Part shown: piece by piece, positions 3,424-63,116 of the stretch
Layout: every line of letters starts with the position of its first letter
Numbering within the stretch: the stretch's first letter is position 1
From: Candidatus Babeliales bacterium
GTDB lineage: Bacteria; Babelota; Babeliae; Babelales; JANWKD01
Direction of reading: 5' to 3'
DNA: 64,000 nt
Assembly: GCA_963701665.1 (NCBI GenBank)
Contig: OY969622.1
Span: 160,001 to 224,000, forward strand
Made by a program: the position numbers and the translations under genes
Notes under the pieces: model-generated
Seen by the model: the letters and a program-made list of their open reading frames with translations, nothing else
The model's database searches: none
Told to the model about the DNA's origin: nothing

Positions 3424-5595
3424 ATGAACTTTTTACGTAATTTTTTAATCGCATTTGTGCTCTGTATGGGTAGTGCAGGTTTAAGCTCTATGGAGGTATC
3501 CAAGGGGCAAAAAAGCTCTTTACCTTCGCTTACAAGGCTAGCAGCAGAACAAGTACTTAAAAATGCCAGGGAGCGCGAGAGTATAGAAGAGACGCGTCAA
3601 GACATGGAACGATTACCAGAAGAAGTGCGTTTTTATGTGAGGGCATGCCACGAGGCTAGACCCCAGAGACGTAGTTTTCTACACGAGGCAACCTCAATCA
3701 GAGAAGTTATGCAATTAGTTGAAGGAATAGGGGTTAATCCAGTCTCGAAAACACGTACAGATGAAACGCCTCTTATGACGTTATTGCGTTCAGGCAAACG
3801 TGATGAAGCGTATGCATTGCTTAATTTCATGAATGCAAACAAACTCCCCTGTGATCAAAAAGATATGCATGGGCAAACTGCATTGAGTATTGCTAAACGG
3901 TTTGAAGATGAAGAAATGATCGCTCTGTTAAAAAATGAAAGGCCTAACGTTAAGCCTATTAAGCAAGAAACTATCGCAGAAGATCCAACAAACAAAATTG
4001 TAAGAAAAAAACTGAAAAAATTATTGAGCTTTCAATCATATGCAAAGGCAGAAGAATTTCTTAGAAAGTTACCTGAATCAGTTTCCTTAAGTAGTATTGC
4101 TCTCGAAGCACAAAAGCAAGATAAGTATACAGGATTAACAGCACTGCATACCGTTAATCATCCTGAACAAGTAAAGATTTTGATGCAGCTCGGTGTAGAT
4201 TTTAATATATCATCAAACGAAGGGCAAAAGCCACTTCATGTTTATATAAAAACAGGCAACTTTGATGTTGCATTAGAACTTCTTAAAATACATGATGAAT
4301 CATTGTGCATTGATGTGCGCGATCATTTGGGATGTACTCCTATTTCCTATGCAATTATTGGGAAACATAATGAACTCATTGCTATGCTTATTGCAAGAAA
4401 AGCTAATACGCGTAGCAAGATCAAGGCATGGGGAAATAGTACGTCACCGCTAGAACTTTTTTTAGATCGCCGTTTTTACAATGCTGAATTGGTGCCGCTG
4501 CTTTTTTCTCAGGATGTTCTTGCAGAATTAAGTATTCCAACGAAAATGCGGTTATTGCAACGTGCTGTTTGTTGTGATTTTGATCCTGTAAAGGAAATCC
4601 TGCTTGGTGATGAAACTTTTGAAACATTAACAGATAGCAATGGCATGAATTTTATTATGTATCTGGTGCAGAATAATCATAATGAAACGCTCAAAAAAGT
4701 ATTAAAGACTTTCAAAGATCCTGCAACACTTAAAGCTGTCTTGGAAAGAACAGATCACCGATCTCAAACAGCACTTTTTTATGCCATCTTTAAAGGGTCA
4801 AGAACATTAAAAACATTGTTAGAGCATAACGTCAATATTAATCACCAAAATAACCGTGGACATACGGTGCTTTACTTCGCTCAAGAATATAAATCACTTT
4901 TAAAACAGTTATTAAAAAAGAACCCTAACGTCAACCTTGCTTCTGTATTCGGTAGTACACCTTTACATGAAGCAGTAAAAAAAGAACATAGTGAGTGTGC
5001 TGAACTATTGCTGCAATACGGTGCAGATGTTAATGCTCAAAGCAATAACGGTGTAACACCGTTGCATGTTGCAGCTATAAAACAACCAGTATTAGTTGAT
5101 ACACTGCTTAATTATTATCCTTTAATTGATATATGCGCGCAGAGCGGAAGAACTCCTTTTATGACCACATTAGTATGTAATAATGTGGAATCAGCAAAAC
5201 TATTATTGGCAGCAGGAGCGAATCCTCTTGCAACTGATAATGATGGGAGAACAATACTCCACAACATGGTTCAGAAGCATCCTGAGAATTTCTATACTTT
5301 TGTAAAAGAAATAATATCCGTTCTTAAAACCAAAGACTCAAAGGGAAAAACAGTATCATATTTATTGAATGCTAAAGATAAAGATGGTCAAACTGTATTA
5401 CATTATGCTGCAAATAAAAAAGATTTCGGAACAGTTAAAAATCTCATTGATTTAGGTGCTGACGTTAATAGCCAAGATGATCTGGGAAGAACGCCTCTTA
5501 TGCTTGCATTAGAGAATAAGTGTGAAGGAGCAGTCAGATGCTTGCTTAAAAATCATGCGGATCAAACTATCAAAGATAGTAATGGTAATACGTAA
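3424..5595 (+). CDS. secreted ankyrin-repeat protein
   Basis: Many G.TPLH/TALH..A repeats; signal peptide ending GLSS-M. Confidence 0.92.
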   Translation: MNFLRNFLIAFVLCMGSAGLSSMEVSKGQKSSLPSLTRLAAEQVLKNARERESIEETRQDMERLPEEVRFYVRACHEARPQRRSFLHEATSIREVMQLVEGIGVNPVSKTRTDETPLMTLLRSGKRDEAYALLNFMNANKLPCDQKDMHGQTALSIAKRFEDEEMIALLKNERPNVKPIKQETIAEDPTNKIVRKKLKKLLSFQSYAKAEEFLRKLPESVSLSSIALEAQKQDKYTGLTALHTVNHPEQVKILMQLGVDFNISSNEGQKPLHVYIKTGNFDVALELLKIHDESLCIDVRDHLGCTPISYAIIGKHNELIAMLIARKANTRSKIKAWGNSTSPLELFLDRRFYNAELVPLLFSQDVLAELSIPTKMRLLQRAVCCDFDPVKEILLGDETFETLTDSNGMNFIMYLVQNNHNETLKKVLKTFKDPATLKAVLERTDHRSQTALFYAIFKGSRTLKTLLEHNVNINHQNNRGHTVLYFAQEYKSLLKQLLKKNPNVNLASVFGSTPLHEAVKKEHSECAELLLQYGADVNAQSNNGVTPLHVAAIKQPVLVDTLLNYYPLIDICAQSGRTPFMTTLVCNNVESAKLLLAAGANPLATDNDGRTILHNMVQKHPENFYTFVKEIISVLKTKDSKGKTVSYLLNAKDKDGQTVLHYAANKKDFGTVKNLIDLGADVNSQDDLGRTPLMLALENKCEGAVRCLLKNHADQTIKDSNGNT

Positions 5596-5686
5596 GGTTT
5601 ATATACAGTGTGATGAATCAGCTTCCGATTATTTAAGTATTTTGCACGAATACAAGAAATAATTCTTTAAAGGCGCAAATAGACGG

Positions 5687-6379
5687 TTAGTTTTCCCAAC
5701 CTGTTGCGTCATAAGGTGCGAATTGGCTAGTATTACGTGTATCTTCGACAATTATTTCAATATCGTGTAATTGTTTTTTTAATAATTTGCGCCTGTGACG
5801 AAGAAATTTCTTGTACTCTTTTGGCTCGGAAGGTCTGCTTTGGTAGGTATACTTTTTGCCAAAAAGCGTACGTTCTATATCATTGAGCCGGTCGTTTACT
5901 AAATCACCCGGTGATCCAGCATGATAAAAAAGAGCTCTCTTAACTTTTCCTGTGATATTTGTCGTTAATAGATTGTAGGTATTTTGATGATGATCACCTA
6001 GGCCATTATTGCCCGCGAATAGACTAGAGTACTCTCCATCTTTTTCATTTTGGAGGTTACATAATATTTCATTCCAAGAGGTATCAAAACCGCCATACGC
6101 TATTGCGGCAGTAACTAGATGGTTGTTTGCTAATTCGTCTTTTAAATCATTAATGCGAACATTTTTTTGATGATGTCGCCATTCGTTTGAAAAAACATAT
6201 AAGCTCGTTACTCCAATACCACCAATAATCAATGTTTTTTGTAGCGTATCCGCCTTACTCCAAAATTCTTGTATGCTATCTTTCAGTTGTCTAAAATACT
6301 CCATGCCAAAACATGAGTTAATATTGATAGAGAGAAGCACGATTAACAGGTATTTTTGAATTGTATTTTTATATTTCAT
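5687..6379 (-). CDS. secreted hypothetical protein
   Basis: ORF track gives 5687..6448; likely start MKYKN at 6379 after AAGGA; signal peptide ending CFG-M. Confidence 0.65.
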   Translation of the reverse strand: MKYKNTIQKYLLIVLLSININSCFGMEYFRQLKDSIQEFWSKADTLQKTLIIGGIGVTSLYVFSNEWRHHQKNVRINDLKDELANNHLVTAAIAYGGFDTSWNEILCNLQNEKDGEYSSLFAGNNGLGDHHQNTYNLLTTNITGKVKRALFYHAGSPGDLVNDRLNDIERTLFGKKYTYQSRPSEPKEYKKFLRHRRKLLKKQLHDIEIIVEDTRNTSQFAPYDATGWEN

Positions 6380-6476
6380 GTTGTCCTTAAAAATAATTTG
6401 AATTTTATCAAAATATATTAAAACTAATTTGATACGGATGATAAACAATTTATAAGATAGCTAAAATAATCGCAGT

Positions 6477-6881
6477 TGTCATTGCGAGCCGACATTGTCG
6501 GCGTGGCAACCCAGCTTATAAAATTTTATTTATTTTTCCTTTGAGTTGCTCATATAAATCAAACCAAGAGGGATTTATTGACTCAATAAGTTTTAATTTT
6601 TTTGTTCGTGAACCGGATTTTATTTGTTTTTCTCGAGCAATTGCTTTTAACATGTCATCGTAAAGTTCATAGTATACAAGTAAATTACAACCATGTTGCT
6701 TTGTAAATCCTTCGATCATATTATTTTTGTGTTGATACATTCTTTGCGCCAAATTAGAAGTTACCCCTGTATAAAGGGTTCCATTTCTTTTGTTAGTTAC
6801 GATGTATACTGCGGGTTGTTTCATAAGGATCTCATAATAGAATTTTATAAGCTGGGTTGCCACGCTACGCTCGCAATGACA
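6477..6881. mobile_element. REP-like inverted-repeat unit enclosing a GIY-YIG nuclease gene
   Basis: 6477-6525 and 6841-6881 are inverted copies of TGTCATTGCGAGC-loop-GCGTGGCAACCCAGCTTATAAAATT, differing only in the loop. Confidence 0.75.
6516..6824 (-). CDS. small stand-alone GIY-YIG nuclease family protein
   Basis: AVYIVTN..NGTLYTGVTSNL..R..QHK, GFT, LVYYE, AIAREKQIK, NPSW.DLY; probable start MKQPAV at 6824 because the longer track start lies inside the repeat. Confidence 0.92.
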   Translation of the reverse strand: MKQPAVYIVTNKRNGTLYTGVTSNLAQRMYQHKNNMIEGFTKQHGCNLLVYYELYDDMLKAIAREKQIKSGSRTKKLKLIESINPSWFDLYEQLKGKINKIL

Positions 6882-11708: not shown

Positions 11709-12623
11709 ATGATTAAAATTGATTATCTGAATGGAAATGAGAAGACAATGCTTACAGGAAATCGCATAAAATTTATCACCACTTTATCTCTAGTATTTTT
11801 GCTTATACCGCAGAAAACTTATTCTATGGACGTAGCAAAGAATATAGAAGAAAAGATTGACCCTCTTGTCGAAAGATTTGTCAGGGATCAATTGTCTAAA
11901 TGTGGCTTTAAGGATCGAGAATCAGTAGGTTTGAGAAAAACTAAAGGCGATCGCTGGTGTGCCTCTACAGTCGACGGGCGGCCAACGATATTTATTGCAG
12001 GCCACGATGTCTTACAATACTATCTAGAGAAAAAATACTCACGCCCAAATTCCCCACTAGCAAAACTGTCTTTAAAAGATTCTTTACAAGAGAAAGTAGT
12101 TTTTCAAGGTGAAGATGGAAAAATTGTTACCAGATCCATCGATGACTATTTAAAGCAAAGAGCTGCATGTGTGCACCATGAAGGTGGCCATATTCTTAAT
12201 AAAGATTTTAGTTTGTGGACAGACAGTCTCAACTCATATTACTTTGGATTTGCATGTGGGGCTTTATTAAGTCCTCTCGCTTTTTTATGTAAATCAAAAA
12301 AGATTTCACTGCCGCTTTTCAGCGCAACTTTTATAGTTCCTTCATATCTCGGTCAAAAGCTTCTTTATCGATATTCTCAATATAGAGAAGCACGCGCTGA
12401 CGAAACAATTGCAGATAATATTCATCTTTTACGTGCCTATAAGCAATGTCTAAAGGATAATTTATTTTTATTTCCCAAATTATGGGAAAATCATAAAATA
12501 CATCCTCATCCTACAGTTAGTAGCAAAAGACTCAAAGAACGCATTAGAAAGATCAAAGAAAAAGGTGATCCAAAGGCATTTGAAGATCCTTTGGTGTTTA
12601 AAGAAGAATCAGAAATAAAATAA
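11709..12623 (+). CDS. secreted M48-like Zn metallopeptidase (array gene 1)
   Basis: HEGGH, EARAD, HPHP; likely start 11748. Confidence 0.8.
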   Translation: MIKIDYLNGNEKTMLTGNRIKFITTLSLVFLLIPQKTYSMDVAKNIEEKIDPLVERFVRDQLSKCGFKDRESVGLRKTKGDRWCASTVDGRPTIFIAGHDVLQYYLEKKYSRPNSPLAKLSLKDSLQEKVVFQGEDGKIVTRSIDDYLKQRAACVHHEGGHILNKDFSLWTDSLNSYYFGFACGALLSPLAFLCKSKKISLPLFSATFIVPSYLGQKLLYRYSQYREARADETIADNIHLLRAYKQCLKDNLFLFPKLWENHKIHPHPTVSSKRLKERIRKIKEKGDPKAFEDPLVFKEESEIK

Positions 12624-13601
12624 ATGGAGTTATGTATGAAAAAGTTAACATGTCTGAGTTATTTTCTGTTAATAATATTTTGTGTGGGTTTTTACGAAAA
12701 ATCATTGGGTATGAATGCAGCTTTTCCCGTGGTGGTTTCGTCTGATTTTAGACCACAAGAAATTTGTCAGACGAATATAGCAAAAACTCCGGAAGAGGAG
12801 ATTGATCCTCGTGTAGAAAAATTTGTAAAAGGCCAATTGTCTCGATGCGGCTTTAAAGATCAAAAATCATTGTGCATGATAAAAAGCAATAACTGGGCTG
12901 TTGGGTTTGCTTATGATGGAAGGCCATATGATAGAAGACCAGTAGTTTTTATCGCGCGTCATGACCTTCTAAAACATTGTCTAAAGGAAAAGTACTCATT
13001 CCGAAACTATGTATTGGAAAAACTGTTTTTAAAAAATTATCTACAAAGAAAACTGGTTTTTCAAAGAAACGATGGAAAAACGCTTTCCAGATCTGTTGAT
13101 GAATATTTAAAACAAGAAGCTGCTGTAGTGCAACATGAAGGTGGCCATCTTATGGATAATTTGCCTGCGCTATGGAATGATTATAATGATCCTACAAGAG
13201 AAGTATGTACCTATGGATCTGCATGCGGGGCACTGTTAAGCCCATTTGCCTTTCTATGTAAATCAAAAAAAATTGCACTGCCGCTTTTTGGCGCAATGGT
13301 TATAGCGCCTTCATATTTAGGTCAAAAATTGATTTACCGCTATATGCAATATAGAGAGTTTCGAGCTGATGATAACGTTCAAGATAATATTCATCTTTTA
13401 CGTGCTTTGAAGCAGCATTTAAAAGATCATTTATTTATAGATCACGCATATTTTCGGGAGAATCCAAAGGATACTACCCATCCTCATCCAAGAATTCGCA
13501 TCAGACGAATCAAAGAACGCATTAGAAAGATCAAAGAAAAAGGTGATCCAAAAGCATTTGAAGATCCTTTGACAGTCAAAGAAGATGCTGAAATGAAATA
13601 A
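12624..13601 (+). CDS. secreted M48-like Zn metallopeptidase (array gene 2)
   Basis: HEGGH, EFRAD, THPHP; likely start 12636 after GGAG. Confidence 0.8.
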   Translation: MELCMKKLTCLSYFLLIIFCVGFYEKSLGMNAAFPVVVSSDFRPQEICQTNIAKTPEEEIDPRVEKFVKGQLSRCGFKDQKSLCMIKSNNWAVGFAYDGRPYDRRPVVFIARHDLLKHCLKEKYSFRNYVLEKLFLKNYLQRKLVFQRNDGKTLSRSVDEYLKQEAAVVQHEGGHLMDNLPALWNDYNDPTREVCTYGSACGALLSPFAFLCKSKKIALPLFGAMVIAPSYLGQKLIYRYMQYREFRADDNVQDNIHLLRALKQHLKDHLFIDHAYFRENPKDTTHPHPRIRIRRIKERIRKIKEKGDPKAFEDPLTVKEDAEMK

Positions 13602-14534
13602 ATGGAGTTATGTATGAAAAAGTTAACATGTCTGAGTTATTTTCTGTTAATAATATTTTGCCTGGGTTTTTACGAAAAATCATTGGGTATGAATGCAGCT
13701 TTTCCCGTGGTAATTTCATCTGATTCTAGATTAAAAGAAATTTATCAGACGAATATAGCAGAAAGTCCAAAAGAGGAAATCGATCCTCTTGTAGAAAAAT
13801 TTGTAAGAAGCCAACTATCTCAAGGCGGCTTTAAAGATCAAGAATCATTGCATATGAGAAGAGCTAAGGACAATAAATGGTCCGCTGGATTTGAACATGA
13901 TAAAAGTCCAAGAATATGGATCGCAGATCACGATGTTTTAAAATATTGTCTAACAAGAAAGTTCTCGTCGCAAGATTATTCTCAAGAAAAAGTAATTAAA
14001 AAAAATATAGATTTACACAGTAGAACTATTAATAGATCTATTGATGAATATTTAGAGCAAGCAGCTGCAGCGGTGCAACACGAAGGGGGACATATCATTA
14101 ATAAAGATACTCACATGTGGCATGCTGCTGCCTATGGATTTGCAGGTGGCGCTTTATTTAGCCCATTTGCTTTTTTATGTAAATTGAAAAAAATTTCGCT
14201 GCCACTTTTTTGCGGCATAACATTTATAGTTCCGACATGTCTAAGTCAAAATATTGTTTATCGATATTCGCGCTATACAGAACTCCGGGCAGATGGTGCA
14301 ATTCAAGATAATATTCATCTTTTACGTGCTTTTAAACAGTATATAAAAGATCATGTATTTTTAAACGCCGAATATTATATTGAAAATCAAGAAAATAATA
14401 CTCATAATACTCATCCTCACCCAGAAATTCGTATCAAACGATTGAAAAAACGAATTAAAGCACTCAAAGAAAAAGGTGATCACAGAGCATTTGAAGATCC
14501 TTTGGCAATCAAAGAAAATGCTGAAATGAAATAA
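13602..14534 (+). CDS. secreted M48-like Zn metallopeptidase (array gene 3)
   Basis: HEGGH, ELRAD, THPHP; likely start 13614. Confidence 0.8.
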   Translation: MELCMKKLTCLSYFLLIIFCLGFYEKSLGMNAAFPVVISSDSRLKEIYQTNIAESPKEEIDPLVEKFVRSQLSQGGFKDQESLHMRRAKDNKWSAGFEHDKSPRIWIADHDVLKYCLTRKFSSQDYSQEKVIKKNIDLHSRTINRSIDEYLEQAAAAVQHEGGHIINKDTHMWHAAAYGFAGGALFSPFAFLCKLKKISLPLFCGITFIVPTCLSQNIVYRYSRYTELRADGAIQDNIHLLRAFKQYIKDHVFLNAEYYIENQENNTHNTHPHPEIRIKRLKKRIKALKEKGDHRAFEDPLAIKENAEMK

Positions 14535-14545: not shown

Positions 14546-15592
14546 ATGATCGCTAAAAATTACATGAAGTTTTTTGTCCTTATAATGTGTCTTGGCATCT
14601 TAGCGCCTGGCAAAGCATATGGTATGAATACTTTTAAGCATCATTATCAAACTTTCAAACAAAATTTTACATGGAAAAAAACAGCTATAGCTGGGATTAC
14701 TGGGTCATGTACCTTGGCCAATTATTTAATTGCAGGATCGATCTATAAAGAGTTTGTTCCAATAGAAGAGTGCTTAAATGATTATGAAACTAAGAAATAT
14801 TATGAAAAACAGTTTGAACAACTGCCAAACGTGAGTCCCGAAGTTGAATTTTTTATAAAAAAATATTTGAAAGAAAGTGGTGTAAAAGATTGCGGTCAAA
14901 TAAAAGTAAAACGAATCAACGGGGGAAATAAAGCTTCATGGGGCGTAGTATGTACATCAAAGTCAACGTGGTTCTTAGTCCCTGCTAACGAGGCAAGAAC
15001 TTTGGAACTGGCATTCGATATGCAGCGTGTTGGATTAATGAAATGGATGGAGGAACATGAACGCAAGATTACCGAGCAAGAGCATATTAATCTTTTTACG
15101 GAAACTATAGCAATCGTTAATCATGAAGCTGCTCATATTATAAATGGGGATCAGGGAAGACTTAAATATGCAGCAATGCTTGCTCCTTTAGCAGGTGCAA
15201 CATGTGGCATTATAATAAGAAAAAATTTCATTCCAAAAAATTGGTACTGGTCCACTAATTTAAATAAAATTTTTAATGGATTTATATTAGGAACATATAG
15301 TCCGTATGCTTATTACAAATATAAACGATTTAGAGAACTGAAGGCGGACGATAATACACAAGATAATGTTCACATCCTAAGGGCAGCAATCAAGTTTCAC
15401 AAAAGAAACCTAGAGCAGAATAAAGAAATTTATGAAAAAGAAAATTGCTGGCCTAACAAATTTCTTAGTGCTCATCCTCATCCAAAAACTCGCATCAAGC
15501 GACTCAAAGAACGCATTAGAAAGATCAAAGAAAAAGGTGATCCAAAAGCATTTGAAGATCCTCTGACAATCAAAGAGTCTGAAATAAAATAA
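14546..15592 (+). CDS. secreted M48-like Zn metallopeptidase (array gene 4)
   Basis: HEAAH, ELKAD, AHPHP. Confidence 0.8.
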   Translation: MIAKNYMKFFVLIMCLGILAPGKAYGMNTFKHHYQTFKQNFTWKKTAIAGITGSCTLANYLIAGSIYKEFVPIEECLNDYETKKYYEKQFEQLPNVSPEVEFFIKKYLKESGVKDCGQIKVKRINGGNKASWGVVCTSKSTWFLVPANEARTLELAFDMQRVGLMKWMEEHERKITEQEHINLFTETIAIVNHEAAHIINGDQGRLKYAAMLAPLAGATCGIIIRKNFIPKNWYWSTNLNKIFNGFILGTYSPYAYYKYKRFRELKADDNTQDNVHILRAAIKFHKRNLEQNKEIYEKENCWPNKFLSAHPHPKTRIKRLKERIRKIKEKGDPKAFEDPLTIKESEIK

Positions 15593-16609
15593 ATGGAGTT
15601 ATGTATGAAAAAGTTAACCTGCCTTAGTTATTTTCTGTTAATAATTTTTTGCCTAGGTGTTTATGAAAAATCATTTGGCATGAACGCTTTCAAACAAAAT
15701 TTTACCTGGAAAAAAGCAGCTCTTGTGGGAATTGCAGGAGGATGCACCGTAGGAGAATATGCGCTAGGAGCCTCAGATTACTTTACTTTGGTTAGGCCGC
15801 AAAGTAATTTTCATGATTTAGAAGAAAAGCTATTAAAATCGGATGATGTTGATCCGATTGTTGAATCTTTTGTAAGAAAACATTTGATAAGAAATGGCAT
15901 TGCTGATCAAAGCAGCTTGAAAGTAAAACAAGTAGATTGGATAAATGACTGGGCAGCTACAGTAACGAATAATTATAAATGGATACTGGTAAAACCAGAT
16001 CGAGCAAATGCCCTTGCGGTGATTTTAAATATTCCTGATTCTCGATGTGATTCAAACGCGATAGAAAAAACCCTTGGACATGGTTATATGGTGAGAATGT
16101 CTCTTAATGACTTTAAAAAAGAAACTATAGCAATTTTGCATCATGAGGCTGGACATATTAAAAATGAAGATGTGAAAAAAGGAAAGTATGCCGTGATAGG
16201 CATTCCCTTAAGCGTTGCAACAATGAGTTATGCGCTGAGGAAAAAAGTAATAGCGCCTCAATACTTTTGGACGAACAATATTACTAAATTATTAAGCGGT
16301 CTTTGTATTGGCAACTTGAGCGCCATTGGGTATTATCAATTTACTAAACATAGAGAATTAAAAGCAGACGATAATGTTGCTGATAATATTCATTTGTTGC
16401 AAGCAAAAAAACAAGAAATGAAATGTTATGTCTTGAATGATCAGCAAAATGATCAACAGCCTTCATTGTATCAACAACTTTTAGAAAAACATCCTCGTCA
16501 TAAAGTACGCCTTAAACGACTCAAAAAGCGTATTAAGGTGATCAAAGAAAAAGGTGATCCAAAAGCATTTGAAGACCCTTTGGCAATCAAAGAGTCTGAA
16601 ATAAAATAA
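15593..16609 (+). CDS. secreted M48-like Zn metallopeptidase (array gene 5)
   Basis: HEAGH, ELKAD, KHP; likely start 15605. Confidence 0.8.
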   Translation: MELCMKKLTCLSYFLLIIFCLGVYEKSFGMNAFKQNFTWKKAALVGIAGGCTVGEYALGASDYFTLVRPQSNFHDLEEKLLKSDDVDPIVESFVRKHLIRNGIADQSSLKVKQVDWINDWAATVTNNYKWILVKPDRANALAVILNIPDSRCDSNAIEKTLGHGYMVRMSLNDFKKETIAILHHEAGHIKNEDVKKGKYAVIGIPLSVATMSYALRKKVIAPQYFWTNNITKLLSGLCIGNLSAIGYYQFTKHRELKADDNVADNIHLLQAKKQEMKCYVLNDQQNDQQPSLYQQLLEKHPRHKVRLKRLKKRIKVIKEKGDPKAFEDPLAIKESEIK

Positions 16610-16631: not shown

Positions 16632-17621
16632 GTGAAAACATTAAAAACATATGGTTATTTTTTAGCTACAATTCTTTGTTTGCTTTGTTTTTCTGAAGCA
16701 TATAGCATGAGTGCCTTTAAGCAACGCTTTAATACGTTCACGCAAAATTTTTCTTGGAAAAAAGCAGCGGCAGTTGGTTTTGCGGGTCTATGCTCACTCG
16801 AGCATGTTAGGTTAGCCACTAGAAAAATATCGCCTACGATATTTTTAGATGATCATGAGAGTAACAAGTTAAGGGATGAGGAATTTGAGAAACTTCCTGA
16901 TGTACTTCCCGAAATTGAAGTTTTTGTTAAAGAACATTTAAAGAATTGTGGCGTAACAGAGTTAAAGAATTTAAAAATCAAAGAATATATAGAATGGGGT
17001 ACGGAAACTACTAAAAATCATACATGGTTTTTTGTACCAGCATCTAATAAATTGCAACTTTCACTTGATATGCCAAAGAAAATTGATGATGAAATAAAAA
17101 AATATTTAAAAGATCTTGAAAGAGAAGCGATAGCGAGTGTTTATCATGAAGGTGGTCATATCAAAAATAAGGATAATGAAAAGCTACCAGCAATTACTCT
17201 AGGATGTCTAGCCGCAAATGCTGCAATTAGTTTTGGTGTAAGAAAAAAATTCATCCCAAAAAACAATTATTGGTTTCATAACCTTGCCAAGATTATTAGT
17301 GGTATGACTATCAGTAATGCTAATTTGTTTGAATATTATCAATTTAAAAAATATTGTGAATTAAAAGCTGATGATAATGTTCAAAATAATGTTCATATAT
17401 TGAAGGCTGCAAAAAATATATTTGAAAGGGATTTGAGGAAAAAGATTCTCTATGGAAACTACTACGGTAAATTTTCTTCTAAAAATTTTTATTCAAAGCA
17501 TCCACATCCAGAAACTCGTATTAAGCGATTCAAAAAACGCATAAAAGCACTCAAAGTAAAGAGTGATCCAAAAGCATTTGAAGATCCTTTGGCGGTCAAG
17601 GAAGAGGCGCAGCTAAAATAG
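16632..17621 (+). CDS. secreted M48-like Zn metallopeptidase (array gene 6)
   Basis: HEGGH, ELKAD, KHPHP. Confidence 0.8.
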   Translation: MKTLKTYGYFLATILCLLCFSEAYSMSAFKQRFNTFTQNFSWKKAAAVGFAGLCSLEHVRLATRKISPTIFLDDHESNKLRDEEFEKLPDVLPEIEVFVKEHLKNCGVTELKNLKIKEYIEWGTETTKNHTWFFVPASNKLQLSLDMPKKIDDEIKKYLKDLEREAIASVYHEGGHIKNKDNEKLPAITLGCLAANAAISFGVRKKFIPKNNYWFHNLAKIISGMTISNANLFEYYQFKKYCELKADDNVQNNVHILKAAKNIFERDLRKKILYGNYYGKFSSKNFYSKHPHPETRIKRFKKRIKALKVKSDPKAFEDPLAVKEEAQLK

Positions 17622-19039: not shown

Positions 19040-19456
19040 CTAATGGTGTTTGCCATGATGGCGGCGGTGATGCCCTTTGCCTTTGTGATGGGTTTGTCTA
19101 AATCTGCATGCTCTTTTGCCACACTCTGCATTAAATGTTGTTGGGTTTTCAGATTGTGCGGCTTGCGTGTTTTCAATGGCAGCAAGTAGTTGACGTTTTT
19201 TATGTCCCATTTTCCTTCTATGTCCTTGGCCTTTGATCCAGCAGCGTCGGTTTTTGCAACGTACTTTGTAGTTTTTTGTGCGTTTTCCTAGTTGTGGACC
19301 TGTGGCTGGTTGTAACGATAGTTGTACCGTGTTAAGTGCTAAGATAAGTTCCCCAAGATTGGTTTTAAGAGCATCTTCAGGATTTGCCATCGCATGCATA
19401 TAATATGGCATATGGAGTATGCCTAACAAAACAAGCGTTATTCTATTTTTTATCAT
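19040..19456 (-). CDS. secreted cationic Cys-containing hypothetical protein
   Basis: Signal peptide ending MHA-M; Cx4C pairs; paralog at 57976. Confidence 0.75.
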   Translation of the reverse strand: MIKNRITLVLLGILHMPYYMHAMANPEDALKTNLGELILALNTVQLSLQPATGPQLGKRTKNYKVRCKNRRCWIKGQGHRRKMGHKKRQLLAAIENTQAAQSENPTTFNAECGKRACRFRQTHHKGKGHHRRHHGKHH

Positions 19457-42132: not shown

Positions 42133-42657
42133 TTATTTTTTGAACAAATGGTTGAGTGTGGCATAGGTTGCTATGCTTAAGGTGCTAAAGAATAAAGCAG
42201 ATTTTATCGGGTTTCGTTGCAGTATTGACATCTTGCTTTCGTATTCTTTAATAGCATTATGTGCTGCACTCTGTTCTATAATTTCTTTTTCACTCATGTT
42301 AAGCAACTTTGTATAAGGAAGTGTATGTAGATCATTGGATGTAATTAAAATATATGCTTTGCCTTCGTTTTCATCTGTGAAATAATTTGTGTTACGGTCT
42401 AAGGTCAATTCATGTACATATGCATAACTTACCTCATCATCAGGGGCTTCCGCTGGAGCTAATCGCGCAAAAAGAATTTTTTGTGTATCTAATTTTACTT
42501 TTTTTTGTCGCGGTTTAAGGGATTGTTCTTCATCTTGCATACCATGTGTTGTTTGTGCGACTTGCATACAATGAGTTGACTGTGCAATAAAAGTGCCAAC
42601 AAAAAATACCATACATAAGTTCATTATTTTCATTGCTATCTCCTTAGTTAAAGACAA
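42133..42657 (-). CDS. secreted hypothetical protein with C-terminal hydrophobic tail
   Basis: Signal peptide THC-M; PRQKKVK motif; terminal TM segment. Confidence 0.7.
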   Translation of the reverse strand: MSLTKEIAMKIMNLCMVFFVGTFIAQSTHCMQVAQTTHGMQDEEQSLKPRQKKVKLDTQKILFARLAPAEAPDDEVSYAYVHELTLDRNTNYFTDENEGKAYILITSNDLHTLPYTKLLNMSEKEIIEQSAAHNAIKEYESKMSILQRNPIKSALFFSTLSIATYATLNHLFKK

Positions 42658-46177: not shown

Positions 46178-46867
46178 TTATTGGCGAGATTGCCACAAGG
46201 AATGGGCGAACCAACCGGATGCGACGCCCGCAACGCCCACAGAGCATGCGACTAAAGGGGTTTGATACCTCTTAAACCAGTTTTCCTTAGGCTTAATAGG
46301 TTCTGCTTGCAGTTGTTTACAACGCGAACATGATGTGGGCTCAGGTTCTTTGACTTCGAAACTTCGTAGGGGAGGATAATTGTTGTCATCTTCTTCTTCA
46401 GACGTTTCATCTTTGCGTGGTGGTAAAAGTCCCTTATACGTTACATACTGTGTTTTCATTTTTTTTTCTCTCTTTTTGCGAATCTTTTCTTGCTTCATTG
46501 CATGCTGAACTGCTCTTTTTTCCAACCGACGAATATCCCATTCTATGGTGGGTTCTTCAAGAGAATTGTTGAAATTTAGCCTGGGAAGAAATTGATCTAA
46601 GGTGCTATGTTCTTCAATAGGCGTTTGAGAAACAACTTTGATGGTTATAGTGCATTTATCGAGATGTTTAAACACTAAATCTACCGTTGTATCTTGGTGA
46701 GCAGCAATTTCTTGTACTTTGCCATATAAAAAATCTGAACAAAATGGAAAAAAATAAGCAGCTGTTTTAGGATTTAAGCGTGCGATATATTTTTTATTTG
46801 TTTGCATTGGCAATAGTGTACATGAGAAGAGAAGCGCGATTAATAATAAAAGCATTTTCTTTTTCAT
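46178..46867 (-). CDS. secreted protein with C-terminal hydrophobic tail
   Basis: Signal peptide LLP-M; terminal TM segment. Confidence 0.75.
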   Translation of the reverse strand: MKKKMLLLLIALLFSCTLLPMQTNKKYIARLNPKTAAYFFPFCSDFLYGKVQEIAAHQDTTVDLVFKHLDKCTITIKVVSQTPIEEHSTLDQFLPRLNFNNSLEEPTIEWDIRRLEKRAVQHAMKQEKIRKKREKKMKTQYVTYKGLLPPRKDETSEEEDDNNYPPLRSFEVKEPEPTSCSRCKQLQAEPIKPKENWFKRYQTPLVACSVGVAGVASGWFAHSLWQSRQ

Positions 46868-46878: not shown

Positions 46879-47322
46879 TTATTGTTTGTTGTTTTCAAAC
46901 CAATAAACGAGTGCAGCAGCCGTAAAAGCTCCTGTCGCAAAAGCTACCGCAGCGGTCGTACGGGGATATTTATCGATGTATGGCACTTCAAGAATGTATC
47001 TCTCATTGTCATTATCTATCTTGAGTTCTTGATGGCGCCAGCCAATTTGCATCATATATTTCCACACGCGGGTTAATTCTTTATCACGCAAACTGACATA
47101 CCACGTAGATCCTTGTGTAGTTGAAATGCGCTTAAAATTTTCTTGTTCAACCGGGAGCCAAATAGTTTCGTTGCCAAGACACGTTGAGCATAGAGCAATC
47201 TGAGTAGGATAAACTTCTGTTGGGGCAGCAGACTTTTTTTTGAACCAACTCATGGCTGAAGTATGGATAGGCGCAAGCAAAAATAAACTAAATAGTATGC
47301 ATAAAAATTGATTTTTCATCAC
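46879..47322 (-). CDS. secreted protein with C-terminal hydrophobic tail
   Basis: Signal peptide TSA-M; KYP then TM segment. Confidence 0.75.
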   Translation of the reverse strand: MMKNQFLCILFSLFLLAPIHTSAMSWFKKKSAAPTEVYPTQIALCSTCLGNETIWLPVEQENFKRISTTQGSTWYVSLRDKELTRVWKYMMQIGWRHQELKIDNDNERYILEVPYIDKYPRTTAAVAFATGAFTAAALVYWFENNKQ

Positions 47323-47425: not shown

Positions 47426-48343
47426 TTACTGTTTACTGCCAAAATAACCAGCAGCAGTGCAAACAACTGCGGTAGTAAGCACCGCGCTTGCAAGAATTGT
47501 TTTTGGATGTCGAACAATGAGAGATTGTGTTTCGCGCATCTCCTGGTGGCCAATTATTATGCCTGCGCCAAAATACAGCAAATTGTTTTCATCTAAATCC
47601 CTTTTAATTTCCAGTGGCGGAATAATTCGCGTTTTTTCTTGCCCCATATGAAGCTCATCGGCAATTTGTTGTTGCTTGAATATACGAGCTAAGGCTGGTG
47701 CTAGTTCATCGATATTGAGAGCAACGTGCGTGTTATCTTTATTTTTAATATTTTTTCTATAATGTTTTACTCCTAAATCAACAGAATGCAATTCTACTTC
47801 GTTGCCATCGTGTCCCGGGGAATAGACTGAGATGGCGGTTGGTATTTCTTGCTGCCCTTTTAAAAATCCTGCGTGATGATACATCTTATTATTCAAGGAT
47901 ATAATCGTCTCAATTTCTTCTGGAATATTACATTGATTGTTGTTTTGTTGTGGATTTAATGCTTTGTCTTGCAATGTTGTAAAAAGGCGTTCAAAAAGGG
48001 GTCCTAATGTATTGATATCAAGTAAAATTTCAATTTCGCCACCGCCTTGGAGAAAAGCTTCACGGTTTAACTGAATACGATCCCAATTTTTTAATTCATG
48101 CTCTTGCGAATATATTTGGATACTTATTGAAGATACTTTTGGTTTTTTTTCATAACCAGGTTCATCATTGTTGACTGCTTTAATATCGTCTGGGGTGAAA
48201 ACCCAACTTGAGAATCCTCCCGTTGACATACGTAAATCACTTTCAGGAGCGACTTCTCCAACTGCTTCATCCATTGCGTCTAGGGTTGTAAAAGCGTTTG
48301 CAAACAAACCCCCCGCTATCACGATGAAAAAAAGTTTTTTCAT
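47426..48343 (-). CDS. secreted paralog-family protein with C-terminal hydrophobic tail
   Basis: Signal peptide LDA-M; IKAVNNDEPGY shared with 48356; RHPK then TM segment. Confidence 0.8.
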   Translation of the reverse strand: MKKLFFIVIAGGLFANAFTTLDAMDEAVGEVAPESDLRMSTGGFSSWVFTPDDIKAVNNDEPGYEKKPKVSSISIQIYSQEHELKNWDRIQLNREAFLQGGGEIEILLDINTLGPLFERLFTTLQDKALNPQQNNNQCNIPEEIETIISLNNKMYHHAGFLKGQQEIPTAISVYSPGHDGNEVELHSVDLGVKHYRKNIKNKDNTHVALNIDELAPALARIFKQQQIADELHMGQEKTRIIPPLEIKRDLDENNLLYFGAGIIIGHQEMRETQSLIVRHPKTILASAVLTTAVVCTAAGYFGSKQ

Positions 48344-48355: not shown

Positions 48356-48760
48356 CTATTTTTTTCCAGCGAGACCACGAATATAAAAATCGCGACTGAA
48401 GTCCTCAAATGTTTCTCGCAGTGCAACAGGAATTTTATTTGATTTTGCACTATTTGGCGTGTAGGATTCTTCTCGATATGCGTCGCAAAGCTTAGCAAAA
48501 ATTGGCAGTACCAGCTCAAGAGGAAGCTTGATGTGTTCTTGTCCCTGTTCTACGGAAAAATGTTTCTCATCTAAGGGGATACTAAGCGATGGATATTCAA
48601 CAATAGTAATAATCTTTTTAGGATTACTATCATAACCTGGTTCATCATTGTTAATGGCTTTAATGTTTGGACGGGCATTTTTTGTTTCCATCGCATCTAT
48701 TTTTGCAAAAACAGTTATCAATAAACTACCTAATGTGAAAATAAAGAAAAATTTTTTCAC
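48356..48760 (-). CDS. secreted paralog-family protein (single domain)
   Basis: Signal peptide IDA-M; IKAINNDEPGY. Confidence 0.75.
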   Translation of the reverse strand: MKKFFFIFTLGSLLITVFAKIDAMETKNARPNIKAINNDEPGYDSNPKKIITIVEYPSLSIPLDEKHFSVEQGQEHIKLPLELVLPIFAKLCDAYREESYTPNSAKSNKIPVALRETFEDFSRDFYIRGLAGKK

Positions 48761-49369: not shown

Positions 49370-50491
49370 TTAATGTTTGTTGTCAAAGTAGCGCATAGCT
49401 ACAGCACAACCAAGTATTCCCGTTCCGAGAGTAAATGCCATCCATTTTTTTGGATGCTTTGCAAAAGTCGATTGTTCTTGTGCGGCAAGCTTGCGCCCTT
49501 CCGTGATACCGGCTTTCTTACCGTTGTCAAAGTGTGTTCTAAATGCACGTTCCGCATTGTTTTCGATGGACCATCCTCTTTTTCTTAACTCAACAAACAA
49601 TGGGGTTAACTCATCAACTTCTAGTTGCACTTCTTCTTGCCCATGTGCATCTTTATCTTGTTCATCCTCATCAATCACACCAAAATCTTCTTGTTTTAAT
49701 GTGATGCTCATAAGACGAACACCCGGTTCAAATATGCTGAGTCTGTAAGGGCGACGTACCACATCCGGATGTCTCGCTAACTCGTCCGATTTGGGTTTTA
49801 TAACTAAGTTTCCTTCTTCTCTCAGAGCCTCCAAAAAAGCCTCGATTTCTTCATCATCGAACCGGATTTCTTTGCGGCCGCGTGCGTTTTTATTTATATC
49901 TTCATCACTAATGTTCTGATAATGACGTGATTTTAATGTGACAAAATGCCAACAATCGCCTTCGCCACTCTTTCTGAAATAGTGCGAGCCAAATCTAATT
50001 CTGTAAGGCATTTTTGTTTCACTTTGACGTTCTGCGCCCTCATCGAATCCTTTTGTATGGCCCGCATGAAAAATTATATTATTATGGTCTGTTAATAGTT
50101 CGTTGATAGATTTAGGAATTATGGGTGATGCTTGGTCGAAAACTTCATCTTTGTTTTGAGTAAGAAGTGCCTCGAGCGTTGGTTTTAGTTCCACTGCACT
50201 AATTCTTATTTCTATTGTTTTATGCTCATCATGAGTTACTTCATGAAAATGTTTCTTGTTTAAAGCGATTGTGGCGCCGTTCAGCAATCCTTCAGTTTCG
50301 CCTGCATGATGAACAAAAAAAGAAATAGCAGTGGGAAGAAGATTGGGCACATCTTGTTCAGGTTGTCTATCTCTGAGCTCAGAGAGTGATGAGTCTGATG
50401 GCGATTTGTGCATTGCATTAATGCCATGAGGAATGTGAAATATGCCACCGAGTAACACGAGATTCAATACTTTTTTCATGGGATGTCTCAC
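49370..50491 (-). CDS. secreted paralog-family protein with three repeated domains and C-terminal tail
   Basis: Signal peptide INA-M; repeated P..I...L....F......G..E(I/V) units; KHPKK-TM. Confidence 0.8.
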   Translation of the reverse strand: MRHPMKKVLNLVLLGGIFHIPHGINAMHKSPSDSSLSELRDRQPEQDVPNLLPTAISFFVHHAGETEGLLNGATIALNKKHFHEVTHDEHKTIEIRISAVELKPTLEALLTQNKDEVFDQASPIIPKSINELLTDHNNIIFHAGHTKGFDEGAERQSETKMPYRIRFGSHYFRKSGEGDCWHFVTLKSRHYQNISDEDINKNARGRKEIRFDDEEIEAFLEALREEGNLVIKPKSDELARHPDVVRRPYRLSIFEPGVRLMSITLKQEDFGVIDEDEQDKDAHGQEEVQLEVDELTPLFVELRKRGWSIENNAERAFRTHFDNGKKAGITEGRKLAAQEQSTFAKHPKKWMAFTLGTGILGCAVAMRYFDNKH

Positions 50492-53063: not shown

Positions 53064-53375
53064 TTAATCCCTCTTGCGTTTAAGGATAGCATCGGTTTCT
53101 CTGCGTTTATTGTTTAGATAGGTAGCTGCGCAAAAAGTAACTGTGCCAAGTATCCACGGGACAAGTTCATTATCGGGACAACAAATTTTTCCTATGATAC
53201 CTGATGCAATACAAGGACCGCAGGTGTTGATCATATCTTCGCAGGAGGGGCCTTCATCATTGTCTGAGAAAATTTTGATTGGACTATAATGACATTTTTT
53301 TGTTGATTCGTGCATACCATGCAGTGTGCTGCTCAAAAATAGTAGTAAGAACAAGATCAATAAAAGAATATTCAT
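53064..53375 (-). CDS. small secreted Cys-rich membrane protein
   Basis: Signal peptide LHG-M; ends KRKRD. Confidence 0.7.
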   Translation of the reverse strand: MNILLLILFLLLFLSSTLHGMHESTKKCHYSPIKIFSDNDEGPSCEDMINTCGPCIASGIIGKICCPDNELVPWILGTVTFCAATYLNNKRRETDAILKRKRD

Positions 53376-57975: not shown

Positions 57976-58641
57976 TTGGGTATGAAGCATATTCTTGAGA
58001 ATAGTAAAAAAATAGCATTGTTACTGCTTTGTTTTCTTTCTTTTTCCGTGGTTGCCATGGACGTTGAGCCTGTAGTTGAAGAACCTCAAGAACTGCAAGA
58101 AGTTCCTGCGCAAGCAGAACAAAAAGAGGCTGCCGCAACAGGAAAAAAACCAAGAGGACAAAGAAGAGGCTACAAAATTCGTTGCCGAGGGCGTAGATGT
58201 TGGATAAAAGGGAAAAAGGGAGCGACAGTTCCGCCTCAGATTAAAAAAGTAGCTGATAACCTTGAAAAAACAGAAGCAGCAAAATCTGATAAGCCTGCTA
58301 CCTTTAAATTTGTATGTGATAAGAAAAAATGTGGCGTAAAACGCAAAGGGTTACGTAGAGGTAAGGGGAAAATTCGTTGCAAGGGTGGTTATTGTAGAAT
58401 CAAAGGAAAAGGCCGAGGAAAATGGAGTGCCAGAAGAAAACAACGGCTTGAATCATATCGTAAACGGCTTGAAGCTACGAAAAAAGGAAAACAAACTGGT
58501 CCAGCCACCTATAAACTTAACTGTGATGGCGAGAAATGTGACGTAAAACAAAAAACTGCTGGAAAAAAATGGGGTGGACGCCGTCGTGGTCGTCATGGTC
58601 GTGGCCGTCGCCGAGGATATGGGCGCGCAAGAACCGCATAA
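57976..58641 (+). CDS. secreted highly basic protein with two Cys-pair domains
   Basis: Signal peptide VVA-M; two copies of KIRCx4C.IKG...AT(F/Y)K..Cx4C; R/G-rich tail. Confidence 0.8.
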   Translation: MGMKHILENSKKIALLLLCFLSFSVVAMDVEPVVEEPQELQEVPAQAEQKEAAATGKKPRGQRRGYKIRCRGRRCWIKGKKGATVPPQIKKVADNLEKTEAAKSDKPATFKFVCDKKKCGVKRKGLRRGKGKIRCKGGYCRIKGKGRGKWSARRKQRLESYRKRLEATKKGKQTGPATYKLNCDGEKCDVKQKTAGKKWGGRRRGRHGRGRRRGYGRARTA

Positions 58642-59996: not shown

Positions 59997-60362
59997 CTAA
60001 TCTGCTTTTTCTTTTGCGCTATAGGCATCGTGGGCAGTTTTAATTTTTTTAGCAGCAAATAGCGTTGTTGCGCAAGCGGCAGCTCCAGAAAGACCAGCTA
60101 CAATGGGATCATTAGGCAAAACGATGGTTGCGACTTTACGAGCGATCATGAATGCGTTGTAAGCGCACGCGAGATCCGTGCACGAGGGATCATACTCTTC
60201 ACCATCTTGGAAATGATGTACGGTGTCAGGATGATAGGCTTCTTGTGCTGCATGCGCTATAGCAAAGACCGTTGGTGATTTTCGAACTGCAAGGTCCATA
60301 CCAAAATTTTTCTGGACAATAATCAATGATAAAAATAGTAGGCTTATCTTAAGCTGTTTCAT
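59997..60362 (-). CDS. small secreted membrane protein
   Basis: Signal peptide NFG-M; ends KEKAD. Confidence 0.7.
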   Translation of the reverse strand: MKQLKISLLFLSLIIVQKNFGMDLAVRKSPTVFAIAHAAQEAYHPDTVHHFQDGEEYDPSCTDLACAYNAFMIARKVATIVLPNDPIVAGLSGAAACATTLFAAKKIKTAHDAYSAKEKAD

Positions 60363-62273: not shown

Positions 62274-62298
62274 TCTTAACACCAGCTCATGAAGATAA

Positions 62299-62619
62299 TT
62301 ATTTAAATTTTTCTTTTTGATGAGACGGCTGAATTTTTTCGATTGAGTTTGGAATAGTCACTGCTCCCCAGGCCAGAAAGGTACCCAAAACACAGAGAGG
62401 AGCAATAGCACAACTCCCAAAAATAGGATAACCCCCAGCTGCCATTCCTGCGCCAGCGCAACCACTTATGCAAAGCTCACTAGCAATCTCAGAATCTTGG
62501 TCTGTGACACCAGAGCAATCCGGTAAGAGTCGTTGAAGCGTGTGAGGGGTATCCTTTTCCATGCAAAACGTTGTATTGATAGTTAACAAGAGGGCTAAAG
62601 CAAATGCTGCTTTCTTCAT
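62299..62619 (-). CDS. small secreted Cys/Gly-rich membrane protein
   Basis: Signal peptide TFC-M; ends KEKFK. Confidence 0.72.
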   Translation of the reverse strand: MKKAAFALALLLTINTTFCMEKDTPHTLQRLLPDCSGVTDQDSEIASELCISGCAGAGMAAGGYPIFGSCAIAPLCVLGTFLAWGAVTIPNSIEKIQPSHQKEKFK

Positions 62620-62771
62620 AGCTGTTCCTTAGAGGTAATGGATACGTGAAAGAGAAACATTTGTAGTGTACCGAAAAAAATTAATAAGAGAAGCTTTTAA
62701 TCAGCAAATTGCGCGTGCTGAATGATCAAATTTTATCGGCTTTTCGTTTTAATGAAACGCGCGCGTGATCA

Positions 62772-63116
62772 TTAGTCAGTTTTTTCTTTTTGATCAAACG
62801 AATCGTTTGCTTTGAAAGGTTCTCCTGTGCGTATGCCAAAAACTGTAAACGTACCAATAGTAAACGCAAGTAGAGTTGCCAAAGGATTACCGAAAATGTG
62901 ATGAGCGACACATGCTGCCGATGCGCCTCCGCCGCAACTTGTCGCATAGTCAACTGCTAACTCACAACAAGGATCATTATCATCTTCAATGACATCCGTG
63001 AAAATTGGGAGTAGAACTTTTTGATCGCGTGGGATTCCATTATGCATGCAAAAAGTTGTATTGAGCGTTAACAAAAATATAAAAACGAGCGCCAATTTTT
63101 TCATTATTAGTTCCAT
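62772..63116 (-). CDS. small secreted Cys/Gly-rich membrane protein, paralog of 62299
   Basis: Signal peptide TFC-M; ends KEKTD. Confidence 0.72.
   Translation of the reverse strand: MELIMKKLALVFIFLLTLNTTFCMHNGIPRDQKVLLPIFTDVIEDDNDPCCELAVDYATSCGGGASAACVAHHIFGNPLATLLAFTIGTFTVFGIRTGEPFKANDSFDQKEKTD

Follow-up and report, generated by a model that had tools for sequence, protein, structure and literature searches.

Why do about 24 secreted proteins encoded within one stretch of bacterial DNA have a methionine (Met) directly behind the predicted signal-peptide cut? The stretch, called the window throughout, is 64,000 nucleotides long and comes from a Candidatus Babeliales bacterium (assembly GCA_963701665.1, contig OY969622.1). 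The genome is one contig of 1,337,192 bases (1.34 Mb, G+C 37%), of which the window makes up bases 160001-224000. Four TLC nucleotide transporters are encoded in it, and Babelota isolates parasitise protists (PMC6561590, PMC4378268). The first-pass annotation had taken Met at the first mature position (+1) for a possible effector tag. We found that +1 Met is a real, genome-wide, selected and class-specific rule at the predicted mature N-terminus.

A two-residue pattern behind the predicted cut

On the whole genome 1225 genes were called, and a signal-peptide model was trained on this genome, with n, h and c regions, positions -3 to -1 and mature positions +2 to +10. It was made blind to Met, which scored zero in every state, and the +1 residue was never scored. 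Every cleavage site reported here is a prediction of this purpose-built model, not of SignalP. Scores were bimodal: 556 of the 1225 proteins scored above 3, and the 478 of them without a later transmembrane segment form the exported set, which includes some signal anchors and false positives (e.g. PBPs, Band 7, a dehydrogenase). A cruder early model, with Met in 88-98 of 386 proteins, was superseded.

Of the 478 exported proteins, 173 (36%) had Met at +1, whereas at the other offsets between -3 and +4 it was found in 1-15; Met makes up 1.9% of the proteome. Ala (32), Ser (23) and Gln (26) occupied the same position far less often. When the mature-side term was dropped from the model the count was 169/478, and a model-free count of Met after A/G/S/C at positions 16-32 yielded a 2.6-fold enrichment, every other residue being at 1.22 or below. 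Proteins with later transmembrane segments had +1 Met in 12 of 78 cases. Run on controls, the same model gave 0/45 in E. coli K-12 (500 kb) and 0/37 in the AT-rich Fusobacterium (350 kb). Together with the model lacking the mature term, these controls rule out AT-richness or model bias as the cause.

The next residue is biased as well: in the 173 proteins Met was followed by E (85), D (22), Q (20), N (12), K (9), H (6), S (5), G (4) or others (10). D/E/N/Q were thus at +2 in 139/173 proteins of the Met class versus 118/276 non-Met proteins, with a background of 21/45 in E. coli and 16/37 in Fusobacterium. Without the mature term, the figures were 136/169 and 114/276. Under that model, small residues, in front of which methionine aminopeptidase can remove Met, were depleted behind it (13/169 vs 98/276; 14/173 in the full Met class), and so were bulky hydrophobic residues (4/169 vs 38/276), though the latter depletion was not significant in the strictest subset (4/82 vs 14/117, p 0.13). 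Further downstream, the stretch from +3 to +25 promotes disorder more strongly in Met-class than in non-Met proteins (0.50 vs 0.42, p 1e-9).

Upstream of the cut, Met-class proteins have the features of Sec/signal peptidase I substrates: a basic n-region, a hydrophobic h-region, a small residue at -1 (A 49, G 20, S 20, C 8 and P 3 per cent) and at -3, and an upstream translation start. The -3 to -1 profiles of the Met and non-Met classes were near-identical (L/S/T/V/A - x - A/G/S/C). In both, Leu occupied -3 in 36% of the signal peptides, and about 35% had Phe/Tyr at -2, an unusual preference for signal peptidase I. Two other signal types were rejected: a lipoprotein (signal peptidase II) signal, as a lipobox-like match was present in only 6/478 and +1 is Met, not Cys; and a type IV prepilin signal (class III, cut between G and M/F, Glu at +5), as the hydrophobic segment precedes Met in all proteins and the true prepilins are separate genes.

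In the window, all 24 junctions listed by the first-pass annotation were present, in genes that begin with a class I signal peptide (Table 1). The statement that the cut falls directly before Met held for 19 of the 24, for which this was the top site of the model (posteriors 0.49-0.996). In the other five (SLG-MN twice, SFG-MN, LDA-MD and IDA-ME) a site 4-8 residues upstream was preferred, with posteriors of 0.009-0.21 for the Met site. Three of these five belong to an array of M48-like genes, and for them the site first listed is favoured, because two array homologues from outside this genome (P0002, P0003) have Met at the model's top site. An M-D/E/N/Q start, also ascribed to these proteins, is found in 17 of the 24, the remaining 7 being MS, MA, MG or MH. 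As annotated, both GH1 proteins, the GH3, DUF1254 and YVTN propeller proteins, the genes at 37171 and 61695, and the M48 peptidase at 32410 have no +1 Met.

Table 1. Window proteins with Met behind the signal-peptide junction, and comparators lacking it (positions in the window; posterior of the Met site)
Feature	Position	Strand	Junction	Met codon	Posterior	Remark
Ankyrin protein	3424..5595	+	LSS-ME	3490-3492	0.79	'LPSL' BC-box-like stretch after
Orphan secreted protein	5687..6379	-	CFG-ME	6302-6304	0.97	
M48-like array gene 1	11748..12623	+	TYS-MD	11826-11828	0.98	
M48-like array gene 2	12636..13601	+	SLG-MN	12711-12713	0.013	upstream site preferred
M48 array gene 3	13614..14534	+	SLG-MN	13689-13691	0.026	upstream site preferred
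M48 array gene 4	14546..15592	+	AYG-MN	14624-14626	0.90	Met kept in homologues P0002/P0003
M48 array gene 5	15605..16609	+	SFG-MN	15680-15682	0.13	second-ranked
M48 array gene 6	16632..17621	+	AYS-MS	16707-16709	0.49	
Orphan secreted protein	19040..19456	-	MHA-MA	19388-19390	0.74	
Ankyrin protein	20852..22282	-	IFS-ME	22214-22216	0.95	then basic cluster resembling a nuclear localisation signal
Ankyrin paralogue	22417..23847	-	IFS-ME	23773-23775	0.91	then basic cluster resembling a nuclear localisation signal
Orphan secreted protein	27442..27801	-	IQS-MG	27739-27741	0.52	
Orphan secreted protein	42133..42633	-	THC-MQ	42565-42567	0.86	
Orphan secreted protein	42715..43731	-	LQG-MQ	43666-43668	0.94	
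Orphan secreted protein	46178..46867	-	LLP-MQ	46805-46807	0.75	
Orphan secreted protein	46879..47319	-	TSA-MS	47251-47253	0.51	
Orphan secreted protein	47426..48343	-	LDA-MD	48272-48274	0.21	second-ranked
Orphan secreted protein	48356..48760	-	IDA-ME	48689-48691	0.009	upstream site preferred
Orphan secreted protein	49370..50479	-	INA-MH	50411-50413	0.93	
Small orphan secreted protein	53064..53375	-	LHG-MH	53313-53315	0.996	
Orphan secreted protein	57982..58641	+	VVA-MD	58057-58059	0.98	
Small orphan secreted protein	59997..60362	-	NFG-MD	60297-60299	0.98	
Small orphan secreted protein	62299..62619	-	TFC-ME	62560-62562	0.98	
Small orphan secreted paralogue	62772..63104	-	TFC-MH	63045-63047	0.97	
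Comparator without Met: DUF1254/DUF1214 protein	19473..20834	-	TYA-SC			
Comparator without Met: GH1	23999..25525	+	MLA-FN			
Comparator without Met: GH3	27894..29609	+	LNA-IL			
Comparator without Met: membrane M48 peptidase	32410..33243	-	THA-AK			

The array consists of six tandem M48-like metallopeptidase genes (window 11748-17621), in every one of which Met lies at the predicted cut or close to it; three other M48 proteins of the genome have no +1 Met, and only 6 database relatives of the array were found. Elsewhere in the window, sequence reading pointed to an IS110-like transposase (38317-39258), an IS200-like transposase (56141-56536) and a GIY-YIG nuclease (6516-6824). It also pointed to a TypA/BipA-like GTPase on the minus strand, split into two open reading frames (ORFs; 7680-8537 and 8647-9480) by a gap of about 110 bases, a pair that reads as a broken gene or a sequence error.

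Protein classes, spread and export route

Class labels were our own and were assigned from Pfam matches (E <= 1e-5) in mature residues 1-480 of the 446 exported proteins outside the window; 38 window proteins were scanned separately. Met was at +1 in 36 of 51 eukaryote-like proteins (ankyrin, WD40, J-domain, ATAD3-like, MavL-like, ubiquitin hydrolase and RING), in 2/25 envelope housekeeping proteins, 2/66 other Pfam enzymes and 116/304 proteins without a Pfam match. The proteome-wide enrichment of eukaryote-like over envelope and enzyme proteins that had been anticipated was therefore observed with our model (36/51 vs 4/91, p 2.5e-17). The corresponding statement that envelope proteins do without +1 Met is correct as a tendency (4/91 only), but it is not absolute. 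TolB of this genome (a 'PD40' protein; TIGR02800, E 1e-49) has the junction HA-MQ (posterior 0.91), one GH1 outside the window has QS-MH (0.88), and BamA has an ambiguous VS-MQ (0.52). Among TolB orthologues Met was present in 2/28 scored (3/30 in all), so that it seems tolerated there rather than kept, and two other BamA orthologues have no +1 Met.

Within the eukaryote-like class, Met was at +1 in 6/6 WD40, 6/6 plain J-domain and 23/34 ankyrin proteins; the ankyrin proteins without it tend to be shorter (less than 260 residues in 7/12 vs 0/23 of the Met-bearing ones). Short stretches that resemble a BC-box ('VPSL/LPSL') or an F-box ('LPDE') lie among the first 50 mature residues of several ankyrin proteins (window 3424-5595, 20852-22282 and 22417-23847; G000:C1 50683, 51883, 999970, 1021812 and 1022752), the BC-box-like stretch alone being enriched in the Met class (6/173 vs 1/276). 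Seven J-domain (DnaJ) proteins have a signal peptide, four of them in tandem, and six start with M-E (G000:C1:245707-255000, 541124, 545568 and 1061302). The need of such proteins for an Hsp70 partner suggests that they work in the host; the DnaJ orthologue search returned housekeeping DnaJ only. A signal-peptide protein with ATAD3_N and AAA domains is encoded at G000:C1:1049952-1051646 (L084:1-1695, minus strand), with relatives at loci L121, L299 and L301-L303. The closest named relatives of these ATAD3-like proteins, found in at least 5 Babelota genomes, are eukaryotic ATAD3. The copy in this genome has Met at the top site, as do 4/6 copies from four others (29-36% identity); a fifth copy has it at the second site (0.19). 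ATAD3 is a mitochondrial membrane ATPase, and Babelota have been reported to remodel host mitochondria; the protein is a candidate mitochondrion-targeting effector.

Other exported proteins have no +1 Met. A ubiquitin C-terminal hydrolase and a RING-finger protein, both with a signal peptide, lie close together (G000:C1:1246729 and 1250580). Many normally cytoplasmic enzymes also have signal peptides without Met, namely glutamine synthetase, GDP-mannose dehydratase, sulfotransferases, glycosyltransferases, STELLO and FkbM methyltransferases (G000:C1 43037, 113673-114612, 377350-379941, 1121776-1125885 and 1135054-1139116); they possibly form a glycan-building set outside the cytoplasm.

Counts across the phylum rest on 65 loci, of which 45 were not chosen for effectors (40 from 24 genomes, and five MutL loci) and 20 are ankyrin-rich regions. 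In the 45 loci, +1 Met was found in 34/249 proteins versus 1-8 at adjacent offsets. With the ankyrin-rich regions the set grew to 401 proteins; Met starts were seen in 22 of the 38 samples that they came from. Signal-peptide ankyrin proteins had it in 34/95 cases versus 35/306 for other exported proteins, and D/E/N/Q were at +2 in 47/69 Met starts versus 113/332 others. Ankyrin proteins of these samples that have no Met begin for the most part with a small residue or with X-Pro. Lineages varied widely, the Met fraction of a sample spanning 0/25 to 5/5. It was 5/5 in G002 and in G072, 6/6 in G048, 6/11 in G079, 2/22 in G041 (many X-Pro starts), 1/16 in G040 (mostly A-Q-E/D) and 0/4 in G036 (A/S); in G040, an A-Q-E/D/K start on 11/16 ankyrin proteins keeps the amide/acidic +2/+3. 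Metagenome loci around nucleotide transporters, of unassigned taxa, had +1 Met in 3/39 proteins, and signal-peptide ankyrin proteins of mixed taxa in 1/32, that one being a 70%-identical relative. Plasmid searches gave no useful match, and the ESM Atlas no usable one (one was sub-threshold).

By which route could such proteins leave the cell? The genome has a type II secretion set of gspC, two gspD, gspE, gspF, gspG-K, gspL and gspM. The gspC, gspD, gspL-like and gspM-like genes and the second gspD are clustered, gspE lies at 92.6 kb, and gspF lies with five pseudopilin-type genes at 1162.7-1167.4 kb; gspC/gspD/gspE were the best NCBIfam models, with scores below the curated cut-offs. Elsewhere in the genome there are a split further ATPase of the GspE/PilB type and a pilin, together with a gene that sequence reading marks as prepilin-peptidase-like. 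The ATPase is divided between ORFs of 183 and 393 residues, and a tandem pair of LepB signal peptidase genes lies about 2.5 kb away (G000:C1:907400-913409). A secretin was found in 120/121 Babelota, mostly in two or three copies per genome. The TolC route, which RARP-1 of Rickettsia reportedly takes, was rejected, as no TolC-family (OEP) match was found in this 93.6%-complete genome. Sec plus type II is the route of CPAF, a host-directed protein of Chlamydia. Two gspD copies, one possibly replacing PilQ, have been described (PMC4776705). Type II is the sole secretion system predicted in Babela massiliensis, where 79/126 ankyrin proteins have a signal peptide, and it has already been proposed for effector export in a Babelota isolate (Pagnier 2015, PMC4378268); the Legionella type II substrates ProA and ChiA reach the host cytosol (PMC5478897). 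Of the earlier suggestion that Sec export is followed by an uncharacterised second step, the Sec part agrees with the Met-first chains of eukaryote-like proteins; the word 'uncharacterised' is unneeded, since a full type II set is present. The Met class would then pass through the secretin.

Possible reasons for a Met-first start

The reading that we favour, with about even confidence, is that the Met-first start was selected so that effectors released by type II secretion escape the N-degron ubiquitin ligases of the host, acetylation by NatB not being required. An effector would be exported by its Sec signal peptide, cut by signal peptidase I directly before Met, and probably released via type II secretion into the protist host. 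There, the exposed M-[E/D/Q/N] start would not be an N-degron, and the effector would survive in the cytosol. A signal-peptide effector could neither begin with an initiator Met nor be acetylated on host ribosomes, and the D/E/Q/N/K/L/F starts that are frequent in ordinary Sec products act as N-degrons in eukaryotes. An M-[D/E/N/Q] start would stay untrimmed by methionine aminopeptidase, would not form a Met-hydrophobic degron, and would avoid UBR4/UBR2 without acetylation; other Babelota may reach the same end via Ala/Ser or X-Pro starts. Exact cleavage before Met, arrival in the host cytosol and the host Arg/N-degron pathway as selective agent are steps that we infer.

D/E/N/Q are secondary and tertiary degrons, and Pro at position 2 blocks a degron. 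Type 1, type 2 and Met-hydrophobic degron classes are distinguished in PMC10611716, whose data come from human cells, so that protist hosts are an extrapolation. In that work an unacetylated ME peptide was poor at capturing UBR4, KCMF1 and UBR2, ZER1/ZYG11B may recognise unacetylated NatA-type starts, and NatA-E are ribosome-associated and co-translational. Taken together, these data would give a reason to prefer M-E over A or S without NatB.

We counted R/K/H/F/L/W/Y/I, D/E/N/Q and Met-hydrophobic as degron-type starts, and other Met, small-residue and X-Pro starts as the alternative. In other Babelota, degron-type starts were found in 18/95 signal-peptide ankyrin proteins vs 136/306 other exported proteins (p 6e-6) and, Met starts set aside, in 14/61 vs 134/271 (p 2e-4); these p-values overstate the difference, because kin and paralogues are not independent, and signal anchors and false positives inflate the degron counts of the 'other exported' sets. 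With one protein per cluster, the counts were 9/50 for ankyrin proteins vs 17/30 for TolB orthologues. The present genome gave 8/51 for eukaryote-like vs 55/91 for envelope and enzyme proteins. The use of different letters for the same outcome across genomes fits host-degron selection better than one fixed tag. As for the eukaryote-like N-terminus put forward by the first-pass annotation, a stabilising start is the part that fits best; NatB acetylation is doubtful: the NatA-E enzymes work on ribosomes, whereas an imported protein has already been completed when it arrives.

Besides these limits on the cross-genome counts, several observations weigh against degron escape. Among Met-less proteins of this genome alone, degron-type starts were no rarer in the eukaryote-like class (8/15 vs 55/87, p 0.57). 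Met is missing from 15/51 eukaryote-like proteins, three of which would be expected to work inside the host: a ubiquitin hydrolase (K-P), a RING protein (G-T-C) and a MavL-like protein (H-L). Avoidance of degrons alone leaves the strong preference for Met over Ala and Ser (173 vs 32 and 23) unexplained, and the reading also requires that effectors cross the vacuole membrane. Motifs resembling nuclear localisation signals were weakly or not enriched in the Met class (11/173 vs 4/276; 12 vs 9 by a second pattern), and the enrichment of F-boxes at the mature start was not significant (5 vs 4). In an unbiased first set, the 30 best-scoring ankyrin loci, a signal peptide was present in 16 proteins, of which only 5 had Met; it was absent from 7, and the other 7 were truncated. 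The later ankyrin regions were picked by ankyrin matches, and some of their X-Pro starts may be misplaced cuts; all cleavage sites rest on the purpose-built model.

A sorting signal is the foremost alternative, which we regard as possible but clearly less probable than not. The mature N-terminus (Met/Ala, then E/D/Q and an acidic flexible stretch) would be a PEXEL-like signal for the type II machine or for a vacuole translocon. The strong preference for Met-Glu (E at +2 in 85/173) agrees with it, as do the more disorder-promoting mature start (0.50 vs 0.42), the amide/acidic +2/+3 kept by the A-Q-E/D/K starts of one genome (11/16), the conservation of two secretins across the phylum (PMC4776705), and the finding in Plasmodium that a signal-peptidase cut giving the right mature N-terminus suffices for export (10.1101/2023.05.17.541120). 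The case for a strict tag, as first suggested, is nevertheless weakened. If sufficient, such a tag would mis-sort TolB with its M-Q start (0.91) and possibly BamA (0.52), with Met in 2/28 TolB orthologues; the machine is near-universal (120/121), yet the Met fraction of samples spans 0/25 to 5/5; 15/51 eukaryote-like proteins have no tag; and ankyrin proteins elsewhere start with A-Q-E, A/S or X-Pro. Tentatively, both functions could be combined, with a linear N-terminal signal read by a two-secretin machine or vacuole translocon while the same start shields the effector from host N-degron ligases.

That the start serves as a substrate of host NatB, acetylation after delivery being needed for stability, membrane binding or mimicry, appears improbable. 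The +2 set of E, D, Q and N (139/173) does match the 'acidic or amidic' specificity of NatB, but NatA-E are ribosome-associated and act co-translationally (both PMC10611716), and M-K (9), M-H (6) and small residues (14) also occur. Nor was a conserved secreted acetyltransferase found in the bacterium, with weak matches in 6/60 other genomes; its own two signal-peptide GNATs were rejected as candidates, being generic-looking and not conserved.

We give slightly less credit still to a bacterial cause, i.e. a tandem signal peptidase that prefers Met at P1', or resistance of M-E to periplasmic or vacuolar aminopeptidases, comparable to pyroglutamate in the Q-rule of Bacteroidetes. Two intact tandem LepB genes with their Ser/Lys motifs are present, and the Q-rule works via protein stability (PMC10653852). 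However, the -3 to -1 profiles hardly differ between the classes (-3 Leu 36% each), many Babelota list one LepB match, Met-start samples included (a search that can merge tandem copies), and periplasmic residents are mostly without Met, unlike in the Q-rule. A dedicated signal peptidase is thus unsupported by LepB counts and by the profiles.

Least probable, and already largely refuted, is a trivial origin of +1 Met as a relic or alternative start codon (fusion to a mobile signal-peptide cassette, cytoplasmic isoform) or as a prediction artefact. Met in some J-domain proteins does sit about where stand-alone DnaJ would begin, and signal peptides are common to tandem paralogues. Yet Shine-Dalgarno matches preceded 0/173 +1 ATG codons (111/173 signal-peptide starts; 307/5950 internal Met codons), which rejects internal translation starts, and E is second in just 9/265 cytoplasmic starts. 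The pattern persisted in 121/357 sequence families and 93/306 singletons, which argues against paralogue expansion. Signal-peptide identity among unrelated families was 0.15 for Met and 0.15 for non-Met, only 3/14,440 pairs reached 70% DNA identity, all near neighbours, and the controls gave 0/82; start-codon relic and shared cassette were both rejected.

Relation to known systems

Literature searches, whose reach excluded subscription papers on the phylum, found +1 Met described neither for Babelota nor for secreted effectors. The word 'methionine' had 0 matches in the accessible main text of PMC6561590, PMC4378268, PMC4776705 and PMC5837995; the novelty of the rule could be affected by the signal-peptide tables in PMC4378268. 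The exported share of the proteome is close to half, 556/1225 here by our model and 44% in one isolate (PMC6561590). Babelota are widespread protist parasites without genetics, and the rule offers a new way to spot candidate effectors. The two residues separate eukaryote-like proteins (36/51) from envelope proteins and enzymes (4/91), and nominate 116 orphan candidate effectors in this genome. If the degron reading were true, the host N-degron system would shape bacterial signal-peptide cut sites, and every effector that an intracellular bacterium exports via Sec should be under the same constraint. If sorting were the function, the start would be a testable linear type II secretion signal and a bacterial counterpart of malaria PEXEL export. 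The code of type II substrates is, to our knowledge, a long-standing open question, and we know of no linear N-terminal feature of such substrates.

How does the Met rule compare with systems already described? Two-step export by signal peptide and type II secretion, with many ankyrin proteins and type II as the sole large secretion system found, is shared with other intracellular bacteria; no +1 residue rule is mentioned in the accessible text on Babela and Legionella type II secretion (PMC4378268, PMC4776705, PMC6561590, PMC5478897). M-D/E/N/Q is the NatB class of starts, poorly bound by UBR4/UBR2 (PMC10611716). The N-terminus here would be cut by a bacterial signal peptidase, not set by translation initiation, and therefore co-translational acetylation cannot be assumed.

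Under the Q-rule, mature chains cut by signal peptidase I carry Gln at +1, which is cyclised to pyroglutamate; there too, a phylum favours one residue directly behind the cut, and the bias is tied to the stability of exported proteins (PMC5837995, PMC10653852). The residue here is Met, with a strong +2 rule, and Gln is at +1 in 26/478 proteins only. As described in those sources, the Q-rule is not compartment-specific, whereas Met in Babelota marks a subset of eukaryote-like and orphan proteins (2/25 envelope). The Q-rule has a modifying enzyme, whereas no conserved secreted acetyltransferase was found here, no search for a glutaminyl cyclase having been made; and the selective agent here is likely to be the host's.

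The PEXEL motif of Plasmodium reads RxLxE/Q/D. It works in a eukaryote, through the ER, plasmepsin V and PTEX, as against bacterial Sec, LepB and a type II secretin here; no RxL motif was found, and TolB is a counter-example to a sorting role. The likeness is that the N-terminus exposed by cleavage, with E/Q/D second, distinguishes the effectors of an intracellular parasite (10.1101/2023.05.17.541120). We conclude that the Met rule resembles the Q-rule in form and PEXEL in marking effectors, and belongs to neither.

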